A stretch of 64,000 bases of DNA, taken from positions 39,622 through 103,621 of the forward strand of contig JADZAE010000077.1 of assembly GCA_020852715.1 (NCBI GenBank), read 5' to 3'. The position numbers and the translations under genes were made by a program. The stretch is from Deltaproteobacteria bacterium (GTDB lineage: Bacteria > Bdellovibrionota_C > UBA2361 > SZUA-149 > JADZAE01). Shown one piece after another: positions 22,758 through 35,715 of the stretch (position 1 is its first letter; each line of letters opens with the position of its first letter). Below the pieces are notes generated by a model. That model was not told where the DNA came from. It was given only the letters and a program-made list of their open reading frames with translations, and ran no database searches.

Positions 22758-22853
22758 CTGGTGTAGGGCACCAATGATAGCAATCCACATCTAATTCTTA
22801 TAAGGGGTTACCTAACTTACTCACCTTGGCTTCAGGTGCAGGGCCCCAGCGGG
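22758..22853. repeat. REP-like palindromic repeat cluster A: two inverted units (gctggtgtagggcaccaa 22758-22775; caggtgcagggccccagcggg 22834-22853).
   Basis: Family consensus near CTGGTGCAGGGCACCA (GGTGC-N3-GCACC palindrome). It recurs in clusters B, C and D and at about 42008-42030. Confidence 0.55.
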
Positions 22854-23532: not shown

Positions 23533-24536
<1,004 letters not shown>

Positions 24537-24553: not shown

Positions 24554-25918
<1,365 letters not shown>

Positions 25919-26071
25919 TTACAAACCAAAAGCTTTGCACCCGGGCGGGGTTATATAGGTGGCTATAGTATATGATATGTTGACTTAAACAAGATCCTGC
26001 TATGTTTAGATTATAAATTTCTTAATAATGGGAAGCTCTAAATGTATTTGGATTGGAAATATACGACAGAA

Positions 26072-26111
26072 GGAGGTTTTGAACCTATACGGCCCCATAG
26101 CCAAAACCTCC
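26072..26111. repeat. Hairpin H1 (GGAGGTTTT-N22-AAAACCTCC), 15 nt downstream of the stop of minus-strand gene 26126..26540.
   Basis: The same arm sequence occurs at 26792-26833 after the paralogous cassette. Confidence 0.5.
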
Positions 26112-26125
26112 TCCCCCATTTCGTT

Positions 26126-26540
26126 TTACTTTGCGGCAGTTACAGCGAGTGGCTGTCGCTTTTGCTCGAGTAATTTGGACCTCAATACACTGAGTTCCTG
26201 ACTGAGCTGGAGCTTCTCCTCCGTAAGCAAATCAACTTCTTCATTAGCAGCTTTGATTTGCTTTTCTACCTCCTCCCCTTTCAGCGAGTGAGCGATGGCC
26301 AGCCTCTGCCATTTGGGAAAGTCATACCACTGCGTACCTTCGTCCATCTTCCGCACATACTCGCCGGACGTGGCATAGTGGTTCATCATTTCCTTATGCA
26401 GTTGGGTTACCCGGCTATAGCCTGCAGAAATCTGCTGCTCCTTCTACTGCACAGCCAACTGAGCCTTCTGCAGCTCAGTTTGCTTTTTTGTGCCATTTGA
26501 TTTGGCTCCATTGCCTTTGATACTGCCATTGCTTGTAATC
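26126..26540 (-). pseudogene. Small coiled-coil protein (cassette 1). Start at 26540 with a GGAGG RBS. In-frame TAG at about 26445-26447.
   Basis: MITSNGSIKGNGAKSNGTKKQTELQKAQLAVQ*KEQQISAGYSRVTQLHKEMMNHYATSGEYVRKMDEG...LLEQKRQPLAVTAAK. The ORF track shows only the part after the TAG (26126..26389). Confidence 0.4.
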
Positions 26541-26565
26541 ATTTATAACCTCCAAATAATAATAA

Positions 26566-26620
26566 TCCTAGCACGCTAGGCTTAGTAGATGAGCTGCACC
26601 TACTAAACCCAGCACGCTGA
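26566..26620. repeat. 55-bp palindromic element P, copy 1 (CCTAGCACGCTAGGCTTAGTAG-N11-CTACTAAACCCAGCACGCTGAT), 26 nt upstream of the cassette-1 start codon.
   Basis: An imperfect copy of the perfect palindrome at 27291-27345. It sits in the 5' UTR or promoter. Confidence 0.5.
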
Positions 26621-26791
26621 TAATATTAGAGTGGCGGTTAAATTAAATTTACCTATTGTTCCAACCTTAACTCCTTCTGCTTACGTAAGCAGAAAATCTG
26701 AACTTCTTAGTTCAAATCTTTCTTCTACCAATCTTATAATCTTCGTTTTTACTAGCTATCTGATAAAACAAACTAACAAATAATACTGCAG

Positions 26792-26833
26792 GGGGAGGTT
26801 TAAAACCAATTGCCGAGTGGCGAAAACCTCCCC
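26792..26833. repeat. Hairpin H2 (GGGGAGGTTT-N21-AAAACCTCCCC), 14 nt downstream of the stop of minus-strand gene 26847..27263.
   Basis: Paralogous to H1 at 26072-26111. Confidence 0.5.
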
Positions 26834-26846
26834 TTGCAGCATCTGC

Positions 26847-27263
26847 CTAAGCGCTCGTTGTTTCGCCTAGTATCCTCTTTGGCTGCCTTCTGGCCGCTGA
26901 GCGGGCAAGCCTTCGAATGGCAGCCCGTTGTTCGGGCGAATTAACCTTCGGGGCCGGATTGGCTGCCGTAGCCTTTTCGAGCATGGAAATCTCCATCTCC
27001 ACTCGGGCCAATGCCCTCTCAGAATCAGCGACGTTCCGAGAAAGCGCCTCCTGGCGCTCTTTGCGCGTCTTGAAGCCGGGTGGCATCTTAATAACGCACT
27101 TCAACTGGTCAAGGCGAATCAAAACTCTCCCCGGCGAAGAAATCGGAGCTCTCCGCAAATCCGCCAACTCCTTTTTCCAAGCAGCTATCTGCTCCTTCAG
27201 CAGATTTTTGGCCCTACGTAATGCTGGCATAGCCTTCGGTTCCCCATTTGCTACTGCTTCCAT
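26847..27263 (-). CDS. Small coiled-coil protein (cassette 2, 138 aa).
   Basis: GGAG RBS 7 nt upstream. MEAVANGEPKAMPALRRAKNLLKEQIAAWKKELADLRR... Antisense plus-strand ORFs here are probably spurious. Confidence 0.5.
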   Translation of the reverse strand: MEAVANGEPKAMPALRRAKNLLKEQIAAWKKELADLRRAPISSPGRVLIRLDQLKCVIKMPPGFKTRKERQEALSRNVADSERALARVEMEISMLEKATAANPAPKVNSPEQRAAIRRLARSAARRQPKRILGETTSA

Positions 27264-27290
27264 TGGTTTTCTCCAACTACAGGATTTTAT

Positions 27291-27345
27291 CCTAGCACTC
27301 TAGGTTTAATGGCTGACAATCAACCATTAAACCTAGAGTGCTAGG
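27291..27345. repeat. 55-bp palindromic element P, copy 2: perfect 22-bp arms CCTAGCACTCTAGGTTTAATGG / CCATTAAACCTAGAGTGCTAGG with an 11-bp spacer, 27 nt upstream of the cassette-2 start codon.
   Basis: Perfect inverted repeat read directly. The upstream regions of the two cassettes are also homologous (ctgcttacgtaagcagaaa...cttctacc). Confidence 0.6.
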
Positions 27346-27538
27346 CCATCAATCGGAGAAGCAATTTAGTAGCTTAGTCTAAAAAAACCTTACTTATCCT
27401 CCTGCTTAGTAAGCTGTAAGTATTAAGTTTACTAAGATGTAAGCAGAAATACTTCTACCCAAATTACCCGAGCCTCAAAGACTCAAACATTTGAAGGCGG
27501 CACCATAAACAGATACAGGACTTTTGTCAAGAATCGCC

Positions 27539-27657
27539 CTAGTGCCCTACACCCACCTCATAGGACTCTCGTAGCTGGTGCAGGGCACCAATCTCTCAAT
27601 ATCCCTCAATCCTAACTCCCTAATATCTTGAATTAATTCTGGTGCAGGGCGCCAAAA
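27539..27657. repeat. REP-like palindromic repeat cluster B (units at 27539-27557, 27574-27591 and 27638-27657).
   Basis: ctagtgccctacacccacc; gctggtgcagggcaccaa; tctggtgcagggcgccaaaa. Confidence 0.55.
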
Positions 27658-27730
27658 CTAGAATAACTAAGCGCGAAAGGCTATGACTTATAGTCGCAAA
27701 GAATAAATTGATCGGAGGATAATTAAATTT

Positions 27731-28309
27731 ATGAATTATTGCCTTAAACGAATATTTATATCCCTATTAATTGTTGGATTAATTAGCTTAGCTAGCCTCG
27801 CCAAGGCTGAAGGCAACTCACCCACTAAAGAACAGATGCTGGCTATAGTTAAAGAGGCGGTTGCTCATGTCAAAAAGGTTGAAAAAGAACAAGCTTTAAA
27901 GGATTTTTCTGATAAGAAAGGAAATTTTGTTCGTTTTAATGGGGAGTTATATCTTTATGCATATGATTTTAAGTGCGTTAACTTAGCGCATGGCGCAAAG
28001 CCTGAACTAATTGGTAAAGACTTAACCTCATACAAAGACAGCTCTGGAATGTTTGTGATTCAGCAGCTGCGTGACACAGCGAAATTTAATAGCTTAAAAT
28101 GCTGCAAGGCTCTTATTCCTGAGTGCCTTCAATGTGCAAAAGACCTTGGCGAGAATAAAGAAATTGTCGCGCGCAATGGGTTTTTAAATTTTCACTGGGA
28201 CAATCCGGCAACCGGAAAAGATAGTATGAAGCTTGGGTATGTTGAGAAAGTAGATGATACTTTTTGGGTAGGATCAGGTATTTATTTATCGGATAAAACT
28301 GATAAATAG
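27731..28309 (+). CDS. Secreted stand-alone single-Cache (sCache_2-like) sensor-domain protein.
   Basis: Signal peptide. YLYAYDFKCVNLAHGAKPELIGKDLTSYKDSSG...GFLNFHWDNPATGKDSMKLGYVEKVDDTFWVGSGIY matches the sCache_2 pattern. Confidence 0.55.
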   Translation: MNYCLKRIFISLLIVGLISLASLAKAEGNSPTKEQMLAIVKEAVAHVKKVEKEQALKDFSDKKGNFVRFNGELYLYAYDFKCVNLAHGAKPELIGKDLTSYKDSSGMFVIQQLRDTAKFNSLKCCKALIPECLQCAKDLGENKEIVARNGFLNFHWDNPATGKDSMKLGYVEKVDDTFWVGSGIYLSDKTDK

Positions 28310-30353: not shown

Positions 30354-30417
30354 CTGGTGCCTAGCACCCAATTCTTTATGCTTAAATCCCTTATACTTTT
30401 AGTGCCCTGCACCAAAG
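30354..30417. repeat. REP-like palindromic repeat cluster C (ctggtgcctagcaccca 30354-30370; tagtgccctgcaccaaag 30400-30417).
   Basis: Same family as clusters A, B and D. It lies upstream of the HD pseudogene and the Y1 transposase. Confidence 0.55.
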
Positions 30418-30502: not shown

Positions 30503-31124
30503 ATGGACAATAGCACGATTATAGAAAAAATAAGGGATCATATAAGAGAAAAGTTCTCTGGAGAGGGATCTGGACATGACTGGTGGCATATTTATCGAGT
30601 GTGGAAAACTGCTGTTGCTATTGCTCAAAGAGAAGGCGCCGATTTATTTGTCGTGGAATTGGCCGCTCTTTTACATGATATTGCTGATTGGAAATTCAAT
30701 GGCGGAGACGATGAAGCAGGCCCTAAAATGGCAAGAGAATGGTTAGAAGGATTATGCGTAGAAGAATCAATTATCGTTTAAAGGCGCTGGGGTGAGCGCC
30801 TGTATGGCGACATTAGAAGGAATAGTTGTACAAGATGCCGATCGCTTAGATACCATCGGGGCTATCGGAATTGCTCGGGTATTTGCATACGGGGGGCATG
30901 CTAATCGCGAGCTCTATAATCCAGAGGAAAAGCCAAGCCTTCATCAGTCATTTGAGCAATATAAGAACAATAAAAGTTCTTCTATTAATCATTTTTATGA
31001 AAAGCTCTTACTTTTAAAGGACCTTATGAATACAAACACTGCAAAGGTATTAGCCGCAGAAAGACATCAATATATGAATGCCTATCTGGATAGATTCTTC
31101 CAGAAATGGGACGGAGTAGCGTAA
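30503..31124 (+). pseudogene. HD-domain phosphohydrolase (YedJ/YpgQ-like) with a single frameshift near 30762-30781.
   Basis: HDWWHIYRVWKTAVAIAQ...LLHDIAD (frame 2). Then IVVQDADRLDTIGAIGIARVFAYGG continues in frame 0. Confidence 0.65.
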
Positions 31125-31604: not shown

Positions 31605-32441
31605 TTGCATAAACAGATGCCTAGAGTAAGAAAAATATATCCCAAAGATAGTATTGTCTTTGTGACGACAAGTACCAAAGACAATCTACCTTTTATCCCC
31701 AATATTCTTATTAATGCTATACTAGCAAGCATTATTGCACGTGCTCAATTTTTGTACGGTCAGCAAATTATTGGTTTTTGCTTTATGGCTAATCACCTCC
31801 ATATGATGATCAAGATCAATATACCAGATACCGCAAGCCGCTTTATTGGCTATATCAAATTTGAATCAGCAAAAGCTGTTAACCAACTACTCGGTAGAGA
31901 ATCGCACAATGTCTGGTGTTCAGGTTTCGATTCTCCTAAAGTTGTTACATACGATACAGTTATCGAAAAACTTAATTACATATACTTGAACCCCGTAAAG
32001 GCGCGCTTAGTAAATTCCATTGAAGAATATCCTGGACTGAGTTCCTGGGAGGCATTTTCACAGGGGCAAATCTGCAAAGAAGTAACTTGGATAAAAGTAT
32101 CAAGTATCACAAAATTAAGAACCACTAAAATGTCGATTGTCGAACAAAAAATGGAATTAAATAAGTTAATGAGCTGCAATGACAAAAAGTATAATTTTAA
32201 AATTTCTCCTAATGCTTGGCTGGAATGTTATCCCGAGATAAAACATCAAAAGCCTCACAATGTAATTAAGAAAATGATTAACCAAATTAAAAAAGCTGAA
32301 GAAGAATATAAAAAAGATAAGCCAAAAATATTTGGAGTTCTCAGGCTACAAACTCAAGAAATAAACGCCGAATATAAGAGCAAAAACAAGGAAGAAGAAC
32401 CTCATTTATTAGCTCTAATATCGCTCTCCGCGTGCATTTAA
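31605..32441 (+). mobile_element. Y1 HUH tyrosine transposase (IS200/IS605 TnpA-like / REP-associated RayT-like), 278 aa with a Lys/Glu-rich C-terminal extension.
   Basis: HUH motif ANHLHMMIKI and catalytic Tyr motif YIYLNPVKARLV. Flanked at a distance by REP-like clusters C and D. Confidence 0.7.
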
Positions 32442-32782: not shown

Positions 32783-32845
32783 CCAGTGCCCCAGCAGACT
32801 GATAGATTTTCTCGCTGGTTTTCTCGCTGGTGCCCTGCACCAGCG
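32783..32845. repeat. REP-like palindromic repeat cluster D (ccagtgccccagcagactg 32783-32801; gctggtgccctgcaccagcg 32826-32845), plus short tandem repeats (ttttctcgctgg x2; gctctaggggt x2). Directly downstream of gcvP.
   Basis: Read directly. It probably also acts as the 3' hairpin of the gcv operon. Confidence 0.55.
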
Positions 32846-32865
32846 AAGCTCTAGGGGTCGAGGCT

Positions 32866-35715
32866 CTAGGGGTTGGTGACCTGCACCAACGTGCAGCAAA
32901 AGTGGCGGTCGCTGGAGACGGGGTCGATGCGGGAAACGGGGGGGAAGTAAGTTTTGTGTTTTAGGTATGGAAGCGGATAGGCTGCTTGTTCACGGCTGTA
33001 TGGGAACGGAAATTCGTTGACAATAAGGAGGTGCGCCGGGTGCGGAGCATTTTTTAGCGGACTATCGGCCGCCTTCACTCGACCACTTTCGATATCTGCA
33101 ATTTCCCCACGAATCGCTATCATCGCTGCTACGAAGCGATCAAGCTCTTCCCTGCTTTCACTCTCCGTAGGTTCAACCATCAGTGTCTCCACTACAGGGA
33201 ATGACACCGTAGGTGCATGAAATCCATAGTCCATCAGCCTTTTTGCTACATCAGTAACGTCAACACTAACGGTTTTTTTGAAATTTCGTAAATCTAATAT
33301 ACACTCATGGGCCACTAACCCCTTTTCCCCCTTGTAAAGAACAGGAAAATATTTTTCTAAACACGCCGCTACGTAGTTCGCATTCAATATAGCTACTGCC
33401 GTAGCCTGACTCAGACCCTCTCTTCCCATCATGCGAATATAAATCCACGGGATTGTCATTATGCTTGCCGAACCCCATGGGGCAGCCGACACGGTTCCCA
33501 TCGATTTCTCTCCCCCCACCTTCACCAACGGGTGACACGGCAAATATTTTGCTAAAATTTTCTTTGCTGCTATCGGCCCTACTCCCGGGCCTCCTCCACC
33601 ATGTGGAATAGCAAATGTCTTATGTAAATTAAGATGACAAACATCCGCGCCAAAATCCCCCGGACGACAATACCCAACTTGGGCATTCATATTTGCCCCA
33701 TCTAAATACACTAAACCCCCCGCATCATGTACCATTCGGCAAACTTTTTTTATTTCTCTCTCAAACACTCCATGTGTCGACGGATAAGTGATCATTATCG
33801 CCGCCACTTCCTCTTTGTATTGCCGCAACTTTTCCCCTAAATCACTAACATCTATATTACCGTCAATATCGCATTTTACATGCACAGTTTCTAATCCAGC
33901 CAAGCTTGCACTTGCCGGATTCGTTCCATGAGCCGACGCAGGAATCAAACATAGCGTTCTTTCTCGCTCTCCTCTATCTATAAAATAACTACGAATAAGC
34001 ATCAGCCCGGCATACTCCCCTTGCGACCCGGCATTTGGCTGTAGCGACACACAGTCCATCCCCGTAATTTCGGCTAAATAATTTTCTAATTGGCTAAATA
34101 ACTCCCCGTAACCCCTTGCCTGCTTCTCTGGCACAAATGGGTGAAGCGCAGCAAATTGCGGCCAGGATAAGGCAAGCATGGAAGCACTAGAATTTAACTT
34201 CATTGTGCACGAACCTAAGGCAATCATTGAATTAGCCAGCGAAATATCCTTATCTTGGAGCTGTCTCAAATATCTAAACACCTTTGTTTCGGAGTGGTAA
34301 CTATTAAACACTTCATTTGTTAAATAAGAACTCTGCCGCTTAAATTGCACCGGCATCTCAATCGGAGTCGCCAGACCGTCCAGCACATCCTTAACTTGAA
34401 TTTTATCGTCACCAAAGCATTGAATAATTGCAACTATATCTTCAGCTGTCATTGTTTCATCAGCAGATATATAAATAGCTGCCGAGCTATAACGAAAATT
34501 AATTTTCTTGCTCTCTGCCTGTGCTTTTATTTTCGCTAGCTGTTCTCCGCTCGCAGTAATCTGTAGAGTATCAAAAACAAACGAGTTGTTTTCTTTAAAA
34601 CCCAATCCGACTAACCGTTCTTTAATAAACTGTGCGATATTATATAATCGCTCTGCTATTTTCTTTATCCCCTCCGGGCCATGATAAACAGCATACATCG
34701 CTGCCAAAATGGCCAACAAAACTTGTGCTGTGCAAATATTGCTCGTCGCCCGTTCACGACGTATATGTTGCTCTCGCGTTTGTAGCGCCAAACGAAATGC
34801 TCTCGCCCCTTGCGCATCTTGCGCCAATCCCACCATACGGCCCGGCATCTCGCGCGCCAATTCTCCGCGCACAGCCATAAATCCCGCATGCGGACCACCA
34901 AATCCCATGGGCACACCAAAACGCTGCGCGCTTCCCACAGCCATATCTGCGCCCCACTCAGCCGGCGCCTTCAACATGCTAAGCGCCAGTATGTCGCAAG
35001 CACATGTGACCAGTATATTTTTCGCAGCAGCCTTTTTGCATAGCTCGGCATAGTCATTTACCTTCCCATCGCCGTCAGGATAAGAAACAAGAAGACCAAA
35101 CACCTCCTCATCAAAATAGGTATCTGTTAAGCTTGTTTCAATAACTTCAATTCCTAACCCGAAAGCCCTTGTTTTAACTACTGCTACTGTCTGGGGAAAA
35201 TGCTGTCCAACCAGCAAAAACCGTTTTCTATTTCCCGTGGCCACCCGATAGCATAAGGCCATCGCCTCTGCCGCTGCCGTTGCTTCATCCAACAAAGAAG
35301 CATTACTAATCGGAAAACCTGTCAGATCAGAAATCATCGTTTGAAAAACAAACAACGCTTCCAATCGTCCTTGCGAAATCTCCGCCTGGTAAGGCGTATA
35401 ATGCGTATACCAAGCAGGGTTTTCCAAAATATTTCGTTGTATTACTGCCGGCAGTATAGTTCCATAATAGCCTTGCCCAATGTAACTTCTCCAAAGTTCA
35501 TTTTTATCAGCTAATTTTCTTAATTCAGTCAAGGCTTCCTGTTCGCTAAGTCTTGCCGGCAATGATATTTCTTTGGTTAGGCGAATTTCCGCGGGAACAG
35601 TCCTATCGATCAACTCCTCTAAGCTAGCTAGGCCGAGAGTTTTCAACATCTGATCAATTTCTTTTTTATCGGGTCCCAAGTGCCGAGAAGAAAAGTCCGG
35701 TAAAAAATTACCCAT
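32866..35715 (-). CDS. gcvP: Glycine dehydrogenase (decarboxylating), single-chain P-protein of the glycine cleavage system.
   Basis: 949 aa. N-terminus FSSRHLGPDKKEIDQML. PLP-dependent core. Intact. Confidence 0.95.
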   Translation of the reverse strand: MGNFLPDFSSRHLGPDKKEIDQMLKTLGLASLEELIDRTVPAEIRLTKEISLPARLSEQEALTELRKLADKNELWRSYIGQGYYGTILPAVIQRNILENPAWYTHYTPYQAEISQGRLEALFVFQTMISDLTGFPISNASLLDEATAAAEAMALCYRVATGNRKRFLLVGQHFPQTVAVVKTRAFGLGIEVIETSLTDTYFDEEVFGLLVSYPDGDGKVNDYAELCKKAAAKNILVTCACDILALSMLKAPAEWGADMAVGSAQRFGVPMGFGGPHAGFMAVRGELAREMPGRMVGLAQDAQGARAFRLALQTREQHIRRERATSNICTAQVLLAILAAMYAVYHGPEGIKKIAERLYNIAQFIKERLVGLGFKENNSFVFDTLQITASGEQLAKIKAQAESKKINFRYSSAAIYISADETMTAEDIVAIIQCFGDDKIQVKDVLDGLATPIEMPVQFKRQSSYLTNEVFNSYHSETKVFRYLRQLQDKDISLANSMIALGSCTMKLNSSASMLALSWPQFAALHPFVPEKQARGYGELFSQLENYLAEITGMDCVSLQPNAGSQGEYAGLMLIRSYFIDRGERERTLCLIPASAHGTNPASASLAGLETVHVKCDIDGNIDVSDLGEKLRQYKEEVAAIMITYPSTHGVFEREIKKVCRMVHDAGGLVYLDGANMNAQVGYCRPGDFGADVCHLNLHKTFAIPHGGGGPGVGPIAAKKILAKYLPCHPLVKVGGEKSMGTVSAAPWGSASIMTIPWIYIRMMGREGLSQATAVAILNANYVAACLEKYFPVLYKGEKGLVAHECILDLRNFKKTVSVDVTDVAKRLMDYGFHAPTVSFPVVETLMVEPTESESREELDRFVAAMIAIRGEIADIESGRVKAADSPLKNAPHPAHLLIVNEFPFPYSREQAAYPLPYLKHKTYFPPVSRIDPVSSDRHFCCTLVQVTNP

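Follow-up and report, generated by a model that had tools for sequence, protein, structure and literature searches.

Two tandem units with conserved hairpins

A stretch of 64,000 nt (hereafter the window) from a Deltaproteobacteria bacterium (GenBank assembly GCA_020852715.1, contig JADZAE010000077.1, positions 39,622 to 103,621) carries two adjacent minus-strand units of like build, both lying in the 1.8-kb divergent gap between argG and a gene for a Cache-domain protein. Each unit consists of a 5' palindrome, here termed P55, a Shine-Dalgarno (SD) sequence with an ATG, an open reading frame (ORF) of 138 codons and a 3' hairpin, here termed H. This feature is real and goes beyond chance. The reading we favour, at a probability of about 50%, is a diverged, lineage-specific gene pair, one member of which is decaying, with sense-strand hairpins that would serve translation, processing and 3' ends. 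The function is probably ordinary gene regulation; the class of mechanism is well known, and the sequences belong to no described family.

All the elements that an initial annotation, made from the letters alone, had assigned to the two modules were recovered in place or nearly so. Unit 2, the first in the direction of the ORFs, has an upstream leader (nt 27402-27466) with a split CTGCTTAC...TAAGCAG motif, marginally conserved with unit 1, followed by an anti-SD segment, CTTCTCCGATT (nt 27351-27361), which pairs with the SD region at the base of the P55 stem. The P55 hairpin itself (nt 27291-27345) has 26-nt arms forming 25 pairs and a 3-nt loop. The SD of ORF2 (GGAGAA, nt 27269-27274), sequestered in the predicted fold, lies 5 nt before the ATG at 27263. 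ORF2 (nt 26847-27263, GenBank MCC6933717.1) is intact, orphan and predicted to be helical, and is followed by the H hairpin (nt 26783-26842, core 26794-26831) with a U-rich tail after it. Upstream of unit 2, a sigma-70-like promoter candidate (TTGACA-17-TATGGT, minus strand, nt 27502-27530, 10/12 matches) was the best minus-strand site returned by the promoter scan in 25700-27900, about 160 nt from P55.

In unit 1, a candidate anti-SD, AACCGCCA (nt 26632-26639), pairs with UGGAGGUU, although not robustly, and is followed by a diverged P55 (nt 26560-26628) whose 22-bp helix (nt 26570-26618) is made of 17 Watson-Crick and 5 G.U pairs. The SD (GGAGG, nt 26549-26553) precedes by 6 nt the ATG at 26542 of ORF1 (nt 26126-26542), which is interrupted by an in-frame TAG at codon 33 (nt 26446-26444), and the H hairpin spans nt 26063-26119 (core 26072-26111). 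The palindrome has 25/26 arm pairs in unit 2 and 17/22 Watson-Crick pairs in unit 1, the copy first described as degraded; it does not sit at the start codon, as had been proposed, its near edge lying 27 nt (unit 2) or about 24 nt (unit 1) 5' of the ATG. The H cores begin 15 nt (unit 2) and 14 nt (unit 1) past the stops, in agreement with the initial annotation, the hairpins as a whole beginning 4-15 nt past the stop. The units are about 680-690 bp long and are offset by 721 bp at their ATGs, 724 bp at P55 and 722 bp at H.

P55 and H are confined to the two units within the window. No hairpin in these 64 kb is longer than the P55 of unit 2, and the 20-nt core pattern of P55 occurs in two places, with 0.05 expected. 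A covariance model built from the two copies did not retrieve a third one in the window, even with filters off. Likewise H, defined by the hairpin GGAGGTTT...AAACCTCC, gave only two matches in the window, with 0 expected. Neither pattern had any match in genome, metagenome and viral collections, and blastn of the 1.5-kb region against phages and plasmids was equally empty. Within the window, the two palindromes do not behave as the ubiquitous filler of the repetitive extragenic palindromic (REP) type which the initial annotation had considered, being present in two copies each, both tied to the ORFs.

When the units were compared segment by segment in a shuffle test, clear conservation was confined to P55 (z 10.5) and H (z 10.3). 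It was marginal in the upstream leader and in the first 45 codons (z 1.9 each), and the remaining two-thirds of the ORFs gave nothing. The core of H, GGAGGUUU/AAACCUCC, is identical in both copies, while the flanking pairs show one compensatory and two one-sided changes. Fold scores were z -9.9 for the P55 leader and z -5.0 for the H of unit 2. The H of unit 2 is trailed by a U-rich tail, that of unit 1 by a weak one without a clear U-run, and in unit 1 the stems are weakened by G.U pairs and one arm has lost 2 nt. In Rfam 15 only a tRNA elsewhere in the window passed the gathering score; at E up to 10, the region matched only generic miRNA-precursor hairpins, far below the cut-offs.

A 15-nt inverted repeat, 14/15 complementary (GCTCGAGTAATTTGG at nt 26164-26178 and CCAAATTACCCGAGC at nt 27459-27473), was also observed. 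It encloses unit 2 and most of unit 1, with its arms at the 5' edge of unit 2 and in the 3' end of ORF1; roughly 0.1 such pairs would be expected by chance in the 1.9-kb region.

Strand on which the palindromes probably act

The two P55 copies were aligned and the 22 pairs of their common helix were counted on the ORF-sense (minus) strand. All cells (44/44) held standard pairs. Eight of the 22 pairs differ between the copies, four of them on both sides (UA/GC, AU/GC, GC/AU and UG/GU) and four on one side only, the latter all to G.U. Sliding the 3' partners by 1-3 columns lowered pairing to 32-43%. In a simulation starting from the P55 of unit 2 and applying 12 random substitutions, all 22 pairs remained standard with a probability of at most 4e-4, even at 80% transitions, and pairing in P55 has therefore been maintained.

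The non-Watson-Crick pairs are, without exception (6/6), G.U on the minus strand and hence A.C on the plus strand. Accordingly, the P55 of unit 1 folds at -32.6 kcal/mol in the sense and -18.5 kcal/mol in the antisense orientation, and the H of the same unit, with six G.U pairs, at -26.0 and -17.4 kcal/mol, respectively. Kept pairing, together with the confinement of every G.U to the sense strand, favours a hairpin formed by the single-stranded sense strand over an operator in double-stranded DNA, since a symmetric operator predicts neither a strand asymmetry nor compensatory pairs that change the sequence. That P55 acts as a single-stranded hairpin of the sense strand is a conclusion we hold with more confidence than the model as a whole. 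The asymmetry persists with DNA energy parameters (-14.0 versus -8.3 kcal/mol), so that the data point to a single-stranded minus-strand nucleic acid and not to RNA specifically; RNA is most likely, as the simplest reading of the hairpin, with single-stranded DNA as a minority alternative.

An operator for an autoregulator was one of the roles suggested for the palindrome by the initial annotation. In this explanation P55, or the shorter upstream palindrome P16 described below, would be a double-stranded DNA site for a dimeric repressor, which might be the product of the ORF, and the perfect dyad symmetry of P55 in unit 2 would suit it. So would the GTGCTAGGAT sequence conserved at the right edge of P55, which by our own reading resembles an extended -10 element (TGnTAGGAT). 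No -35 element was found by the same reading at the right distance from this putative -10, and the promoter-like site located about 160 nt upstream does not overlap P55. As DNA, moreover, the arms of unit 1 differ at 5/22 positions, all of them G.T on one strand, which leaves 17/22 Watson-Crick pairs, and the four two-sided changes keep the pairing yet alter the sequence that a protein would read. Profile searches did not find a helix-turn-helix or other DNA-binding domain match in the ORFs. We consider an operator very improbable.

P16 is the weakest part of the observation. It corresponds to CTGCTTACGTAAGCAG at nt 26677-26692 in the leader of unit 1 and becomes a perfect 20-bp palindrome once extended to nt 26675-26694 (TTCTGCTTACGTAAGCAGAA, minus strand), and this symmetry, with its CTG-N10-CAG spacing, is a further point for the operator. 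It is intact only in unit 1, however, being interrupted by 31 nt in unit 2. The split version of unit 2 (nt 27446-27402) has no fold signal (z 0.09), and a single such palindrome match is not by itself beyond chance, 22/100 shuffles giving one or more hits when up to 3 mismatches are allowed. Of the conserved upstream palindrome initially proposed, the perfect copy of unit 1 was confirmed, its counterpart in unit 2 being the split version. The spacing of P16 is that of gammaproteobacterial LexA boxes, yet with CTGC instead of CTGT.

A leader stem predicted to close the ribosome-binding site

In unit 2, the segment CUUCUCCGAUU (nt 27361-27351) extends the base of the P55 stem and pairs with the SD region. 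This pairing was predicted in the minimum free energy (MFE), centroid and ensemble structures, with an unpaired probability of about 0 for the SD. Between the units, SD and anti-SD differ in a complementary manner (GGAGAA with UUCUCC versus GGAGGUU with AACC-GCC). As the base of P55 continues directly into the anti-SD:SD helix, the ribosome-binding site would be closed in the full-length transcript.

The model we propose is that the units arose by an old tandem duplication of a small, lineage-specific gene and have since diverged strongly. The gene would encode a hydrophilic, helical, coiled-coil-type protein, and selection would have preserved two hairpins of the ORF-sense transcript, namely P55 (22-28 bp) in the 5' leader and H at the 3' side. 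Transcription would start from the promoter-like site at nt 27530-27502, and the P55 stem would have to be opened or cleaved for translation to take place.

RNase III cleaves substrates of the type of a perfect RNA duplex longer than 20 bp. Its processing stems are known from phage T7 early mRNAs, the lambda N leader and E. coli adhE, and its cleavage can separate cistrons or alter translation or stability. The likeness to P55 lies in perfect double-stranded RNA of at least 20 bp, placed between cistrons or just 5' of a ribosome-binding site; the differences are that no sequence family is shared and that here the base of the stem would also close the SD directly. RNase III could cut the P55 helix and, since no minus-strand promoter-like site was found by the promoter scan between the units (from the H of unit 2 to ORF1), a role in intercistronic processing would fit the unit 1 copy. 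The RNase III-type stem suggested by the initial annotation is thus favoured as far as it concerns a helix kept through 12 substitutions and paired on the sense strand; cutting by RNase III in particular is presumptive, and we give it a lower probability than the overall model.

H, located right after the stop, may act as a partial (leaky) terminator or as a 3'-end protector. Unit 1, and possibly argG, would be reached by read-through from the site at nt 27530-27502. Read-through towards argG is possible. The argG gene has the same orientation as the units and starts 160 nt after the H of unit 1, and a simple promoter scan did not find a promoter-like site between the two. In an alternative that we consider improbable, the two units would form a structured 1.6-kb leader controlling argG.

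The ORFs and their coding capacity

Codon usage was evaluated by a log-odds score trained on 22 long genes of the window, which themselves range from 0.11 to 0.31. The score was positive in the predicted frame only, being +0.13 for ORF2 and +0.22 to +0.25 on both sides of the TAG for ORF1; the codon bias is therefore gene-like, in keeping with the coding role initially assigned to the ORFs. SD and ATG are correctly spaced in both, and the predicted products are hydrophilic. AlphaFold2 modelled ORF2 as three helices with a mean predicted local distance difference test score (pLDDT) of 66, and ORF1 with a mean of 70 and up to 96 in a helix; a long C-terminal helix was predicted in both products. 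The G+C content (0.55 for ORF2 and 0.50 for ORF1) is above that of every training gene (maximum 0.49) and thus hints, at the level of composition, at a foreign origin.

Homology searches did not place the products in any family, and the profile and structure comparisons envisaged by the initial annotation yielded no useful match. In a word-indexed search of 5.8 billion proteins ORF1 and ORF2 matched only themselves, and an exhaustive HMMER search of 1.84 billion representative proteins with ORF2 as query retrieved only itself. Profiles of Pfam, NCBIfam, PHROGs and PADLOC gave only coiled-coil noise (best E 0.056 in PADLOC and 0.018 in PHROGs), neither Pfam nor NCBIfam returning a Y1_Tnp or IS200 match with an E of 1 or less for ORF1 or ORF2. 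Sequence searches of the PDB returned nothing significant, the best Foldseek hit of the ORF2 model against the PDB had an E of 1.4, and neither tblastn against phages and plasmids nor searches of viral contigs gave any match. By these searches both ORFs are strict orphans.

ORF1 is probably a pseudogene, or else is expressed from an internal start. Recoding of its TAG was rejected because TAG is the commonest true stop, ending 17/39 long ORFs of the window. A genuine nonsense mutation is plausible given the broken trpS and HD-domain genes nearby. With its nonsense codon, its G.U-weakened stems and the 2-nt loss in one arm, unit 1 appears from its sequence to be decaying.

These features also bear on a different explanation, in which the ORFs would not be functional genes and only the hairpins of the 1.4 kb would matter. 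The sequence would then be in decay, or non-coding as a structured RNA or a stretch of a long argG leader. The strict orphan state, which for ORF2 extends to the 1.84 billion representatives, the nonsense codon of ORF1, the two neighbouring pseudogenes and the position of argG, in the same orientation 160 nt after the H of unit 1 with no promoter-like site found between them, are all compatible with it. The ORF bodies, in addition, have diverged to saturation, whereas the hairpins have not, and they fold better than dinucleotide shuffles (z -3.6 for ORF1, nt 26126-26542; z -2.5 for ORF2, nt 26847-27263), while 22 equal-length segments of real genes, used as control, had a mean z of -0.47 (sd 1.28). 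Such an explanation is at odds with a codon score that is positive only in the predicted frame and falls within the range of real genes, with a well-placed SD and ATG followed by 138 codons open save for the single TAG of ORF1, with the long helices modelled at moderate to high confidence and with the lack of any Rfam family match. We regard it as unlikely, and keep the gene pair as the preferred reading. A 12-bp hairpin was also noted early in ORF1 (nt 26453-26484).

As the initial annotation had stated, the two products are not alike, BLASTP finding no similarity between them. The units nevertheless show the marks of a shared past. The ORFs are identical in length, the elements are spaced in the same way, and a co-linear DNA similarity extends for about 110 nt into the ORFs. 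At the N-terminus an in-frame alignment of about 35 codons could be built (KKQTELQKAQLAVQ*KE versus RRAKNLLKEQIAAWKKE; local p about 0.012, global z 2.5), which places the TAG of ORF1 opposite a Lys codon (AAA) of ORF2. From this we infer that ORF1 and ORF2 share a common ancestor. Sequence comparison gives moderate evidence that an old tandem duplication took place and that the hairpins, rather than the protein sequences, were held constant after it. The duplication mentioned in the initial annotation is thus plausible in view of equal ORF length and spacing and of the marginal N-terminal similarity, although not proven.

Several observations weigh against the model as a whole. The case rests on two copies in one metagenome-assembled genome, and two sequences make for a weak shuffle control of covariation, 38/500 shuffles reaching the observed values. 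Strand-biased transitions may in part explain the G.U enrichment, the minus strand being G-rich. Outside P55 and H the homology of the units appears marginal (z 1.9), and changes are not in excess at the third positions of the aligned N-terminal codons. Sequestration of the SD, as modelled, is not robust in unit 1, where the MFE structure changes when the folded segment is extended by the first 15 nt of the ORF and the SD pairing becomes ambiguous. An intrinsic-terminator scan did not call H in either copy because of its 18-22 nt loops, and the unit 1 copy is without a clear U-run. Independent expression of unit 1 is unsupported, no promoter-like site lying between the units, and the ORFs, having no homologue in the searches made, may not be functional genes.

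Comparison with known hairpin-bearing systems

The layout of the units is closely matched by that of the insertion sequence IS200, which is 707 bp long and has a left-end palindrome, a stem-loop of about 70 nt sequestering the SD, a single ORF coding for about 150 aa and secondary structure at its right end (PMC4513863). In IS200 the leader stem-loop of tnpA was demonstrated experimentally to sequester the SD and to repress translation, and a terminator palindrome adjoins it upstream (PMC4513863). The likeness, which is one of layout only, covers a unit of about 700 bp, a left-end palindrome, an SD-sequestering leader stem, one ORF (about 140-150 codons) and secondary structure at the 3' end. 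The ORFs described here differ in not being Y1/HUH transposases, their models being all-helical, and the upper stem of P55 is a near-perfect helix of 22-26 bp, whereas the IS200 stem is imperfect. Moreover, unlike the ends of IS200/IS605 elements, the 5' and 3' hairpins are unrelated, P16 and P55 having no similarity to H and the P55 covariance model scoring the H2 region at only 14 bits (E 0.5). Only two copies of each element are present in the window, and no others were found in the collections searched. Membership in the IS200/IS605 family was rejected for the lack of a Y1 transposase and for the unrelated end structures, with no other copies in the window.

The same comparison bears on whether the hairpins might act as single-stranded DNA, the units being tandem non-autonomous mobile or cassette-like elements (of the IS200/IS605, palindrome-associated transposable element (PATE) or integron-cassette type) with different passenger ORFs and with ends that would fold, and be recognised, on a single DNA strand. 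Besides the IS200-like layout, the tolerance of G.T on one strand under DNA parameters and the fact that the folding strand is the G-rich one are in line with this, as are a Y1 transposase gene 4 kb away and the raised G+C of the ORFs (0.50-0.55 versus 0.42-0.49 in neighbouring genes). Flanking structures that are conserved around unalignable ORF bodies are also the pattern expected of cassettes, although an equal ORF length with a weak N-terminal similarity is easier to reconcile with duplication than with cargo of separate origin. No Y1 or other transposase could be recognised in either ORF, the hairpins before and after the ORFs do not correspond to each other as IS200/IS605 ends do, no further copy was found in the window or in genome, metagenome, viral, phage and plasmid collections, and the nearby transposase has palindromic partners of its own, different from P55 and H. 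Canonical attC boxes and, among the neighbours scanned, an integrase were also not found. On balance we judge this explanation rather unlikely. A more specific version, in which P55 and H would be the ends of an undescribed family of units of about 700 nt, IS200-like without a transposase, duplicating or moving through single-stranded intermediates and carrying orphan ORFs of fast turnover, appears to us improbable. The sense-strand hairpins of a diverged gene pair are still the preferred reading.

Integron cassettes and their attC sites offer a similar parallel, with small orphan ORFs in the same orientation, an imperfect palindrome of 55-60 nt within about 15 nt of their 3' end, units of about 700 bp and structures that are conserved while the ORF bodies are unalignable. 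In contrast with integrons, the units number only two, and each ORF is also preceded by a conserved hairpin, larger than the one that follows it. A regular-expression scan of both strands of 25800-27800 did not find the RYYYAAC/GTTRRRY (R''/R') attC box pair, and no tyrosine recombinase/integrase was found among the ten neighbouring ORFs scanned (13.1-35.7 kb). The integron reading was dismissed because of the missing attC boxes, as well as for the lack of an integrase among these neighbours.

The PeSL of T4-type phages are composite terminator-promoter cassettes, in which conserved stem-loops bracket unrelated small orphan ORFs (PMC4122927). They resemble the units in having conserved non-coding stem-loops around small orphan ORFs, and differ from them in that no promoter-like site was found between H2 and ORF1 and that there is no phage context or homology; a PeSL-like reading was rejected for the missing internal promoter-like site. 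Defence or phage protein families were likewise set aside, PADLOC and PHROGs giving only coiled-coil noise and tblastn against phages and plasmids being empty. Tandem type I toxin-antitoxin repeats (Ldr/Rdl, Ibs/Sib) found no support either, the ORFs being hydrophilic and 138 codons long versus a hydrophobic toxin of less than about 60 aa. No positive evidence for the phage remnant or the toxin-antitoxin-like module put forward initially thus came from PHROGs, PADLOC, or the phage, plasmid and viral searches.

The sole signs of an antisense RNA were two plus-strand promoter-like sites, neither of them conserved between the units. The first (TTCAAA-18-TATAAT, nt 26711-26740, 10/12) would drive an RNA antisense to H2/ORF2, the second (TTGTAA-16-AATAAT, nt 26533-26560, 9/12) one antisense to the unit 1 leader. 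They recall the art200 antisense RNA of IS200.

A relationship with REP elements had also been hinted at in the initial annotation, on account of the 8-mer CCTAGCAC. The window does contain a local REP family, GCTGGTGCCCTGCACCAGC, with about 10 units (consensus GGTGCCCTGCACCAG, 10 matches), which flanks a gene resembling a REP-associated tyrosine transposase (RAYT). This Y1 transposase ORF (nt 31605-32441, plus strand; Pfam Y1_Tnp, E 1.6e-7) scored 67 bits against the NCBIfam REP-associated tyrosine transposase model, under its 80-bit cut-off. REP-like palindromes were located at nt 30354-30415, 32827-32889, 22758-22847 and 27575-27653, the last a doublet just upstream of unit 2. Together, the REP units and the RAYT-like gene look like a REP/RAYT system. 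The 8-mer is enriched in the window (6 occurrences versus 1.1 expected), three of the six sites being P55 arms, one a REP loop variant and two lying in sequence without REP-like or P55-like features. Intergenic palindromes, and a REP family with a RAYT-like gene in the same window, are what the region has in common with REP and bacterial interspersed mosaic elements (BIME). P55 and H differ from these in being longer (55-60 nt), present in two copies each, of other sequence and fixed in position with respect to an ORF. The REP relationship was therefore rejected for the difference in sequence and copy number, the 8-mer being shared with a single REP loop variant.

Genomic setting

The window belongs to a 124-kb contig of an uncultured bacterium and has a G+C content of about 0.44. 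The gap that houses the units is flanked by argG (nt 24554-25894, minus strand) and by the Cache-domain gene (nt 27731-28309, plus strand), 3' of which agmatine deiminase and N-carbamoylputrescine amidase-type genes are located. The closest argG among 185,579 species genomes is 78% identical and comes from an unrelated phylum, and for the Cache-domain protein a search of 5.8 billion proteins gave 52% identity at best, which indicates that the source bacterium has no close sequenced relative.

Directly downstream of argG, trpS (about nt 23535-24536, minus strand) is a pseudogene. Its reading frame shifts after codon 98 and is interrupted by TAA codons at 24129 and, inside the KMSKS motif, at 23937; unless the assembly is faulty at this gene, the genome must carry another copy of trpS. 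An HD-domain phosphohydrolase-like gene (nt 30505-31123, plus strand), less than 4 kb from the units, is broken near 30780 by a stop and a change of frame and is an apparent pseudogene. Elsewhere in the window, an isolated 49-nt hairpin (nt 1262-1310, CCGCAAGATGTTATGG...CCACAACATCTTGCGG) with 17/19 paired positions and an 11-nt loop lies about 290 nt upstream of an ORF starting at 1602 and is unrelated to P55 and H.

Significance

The main value of these observations is methodological, as the compensatory and G.U changes of two copies already suffice to separate a single-stranded sense hairpin from a protein-binding DNA palindrome. If units of this kind were mobile, they would represent a small-gene cassette system not described before, from a lineage of bacteria still unsampled, and further genomic copies carrying other ORFs would point to such a new cassette or mobile system. 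If the gene-pair model is true, the two units would be another case of a familiar design, in which a leader stem closing the ribosome-binding site is combined with a 3' hairpin, here on lineage-specific orphan genes.

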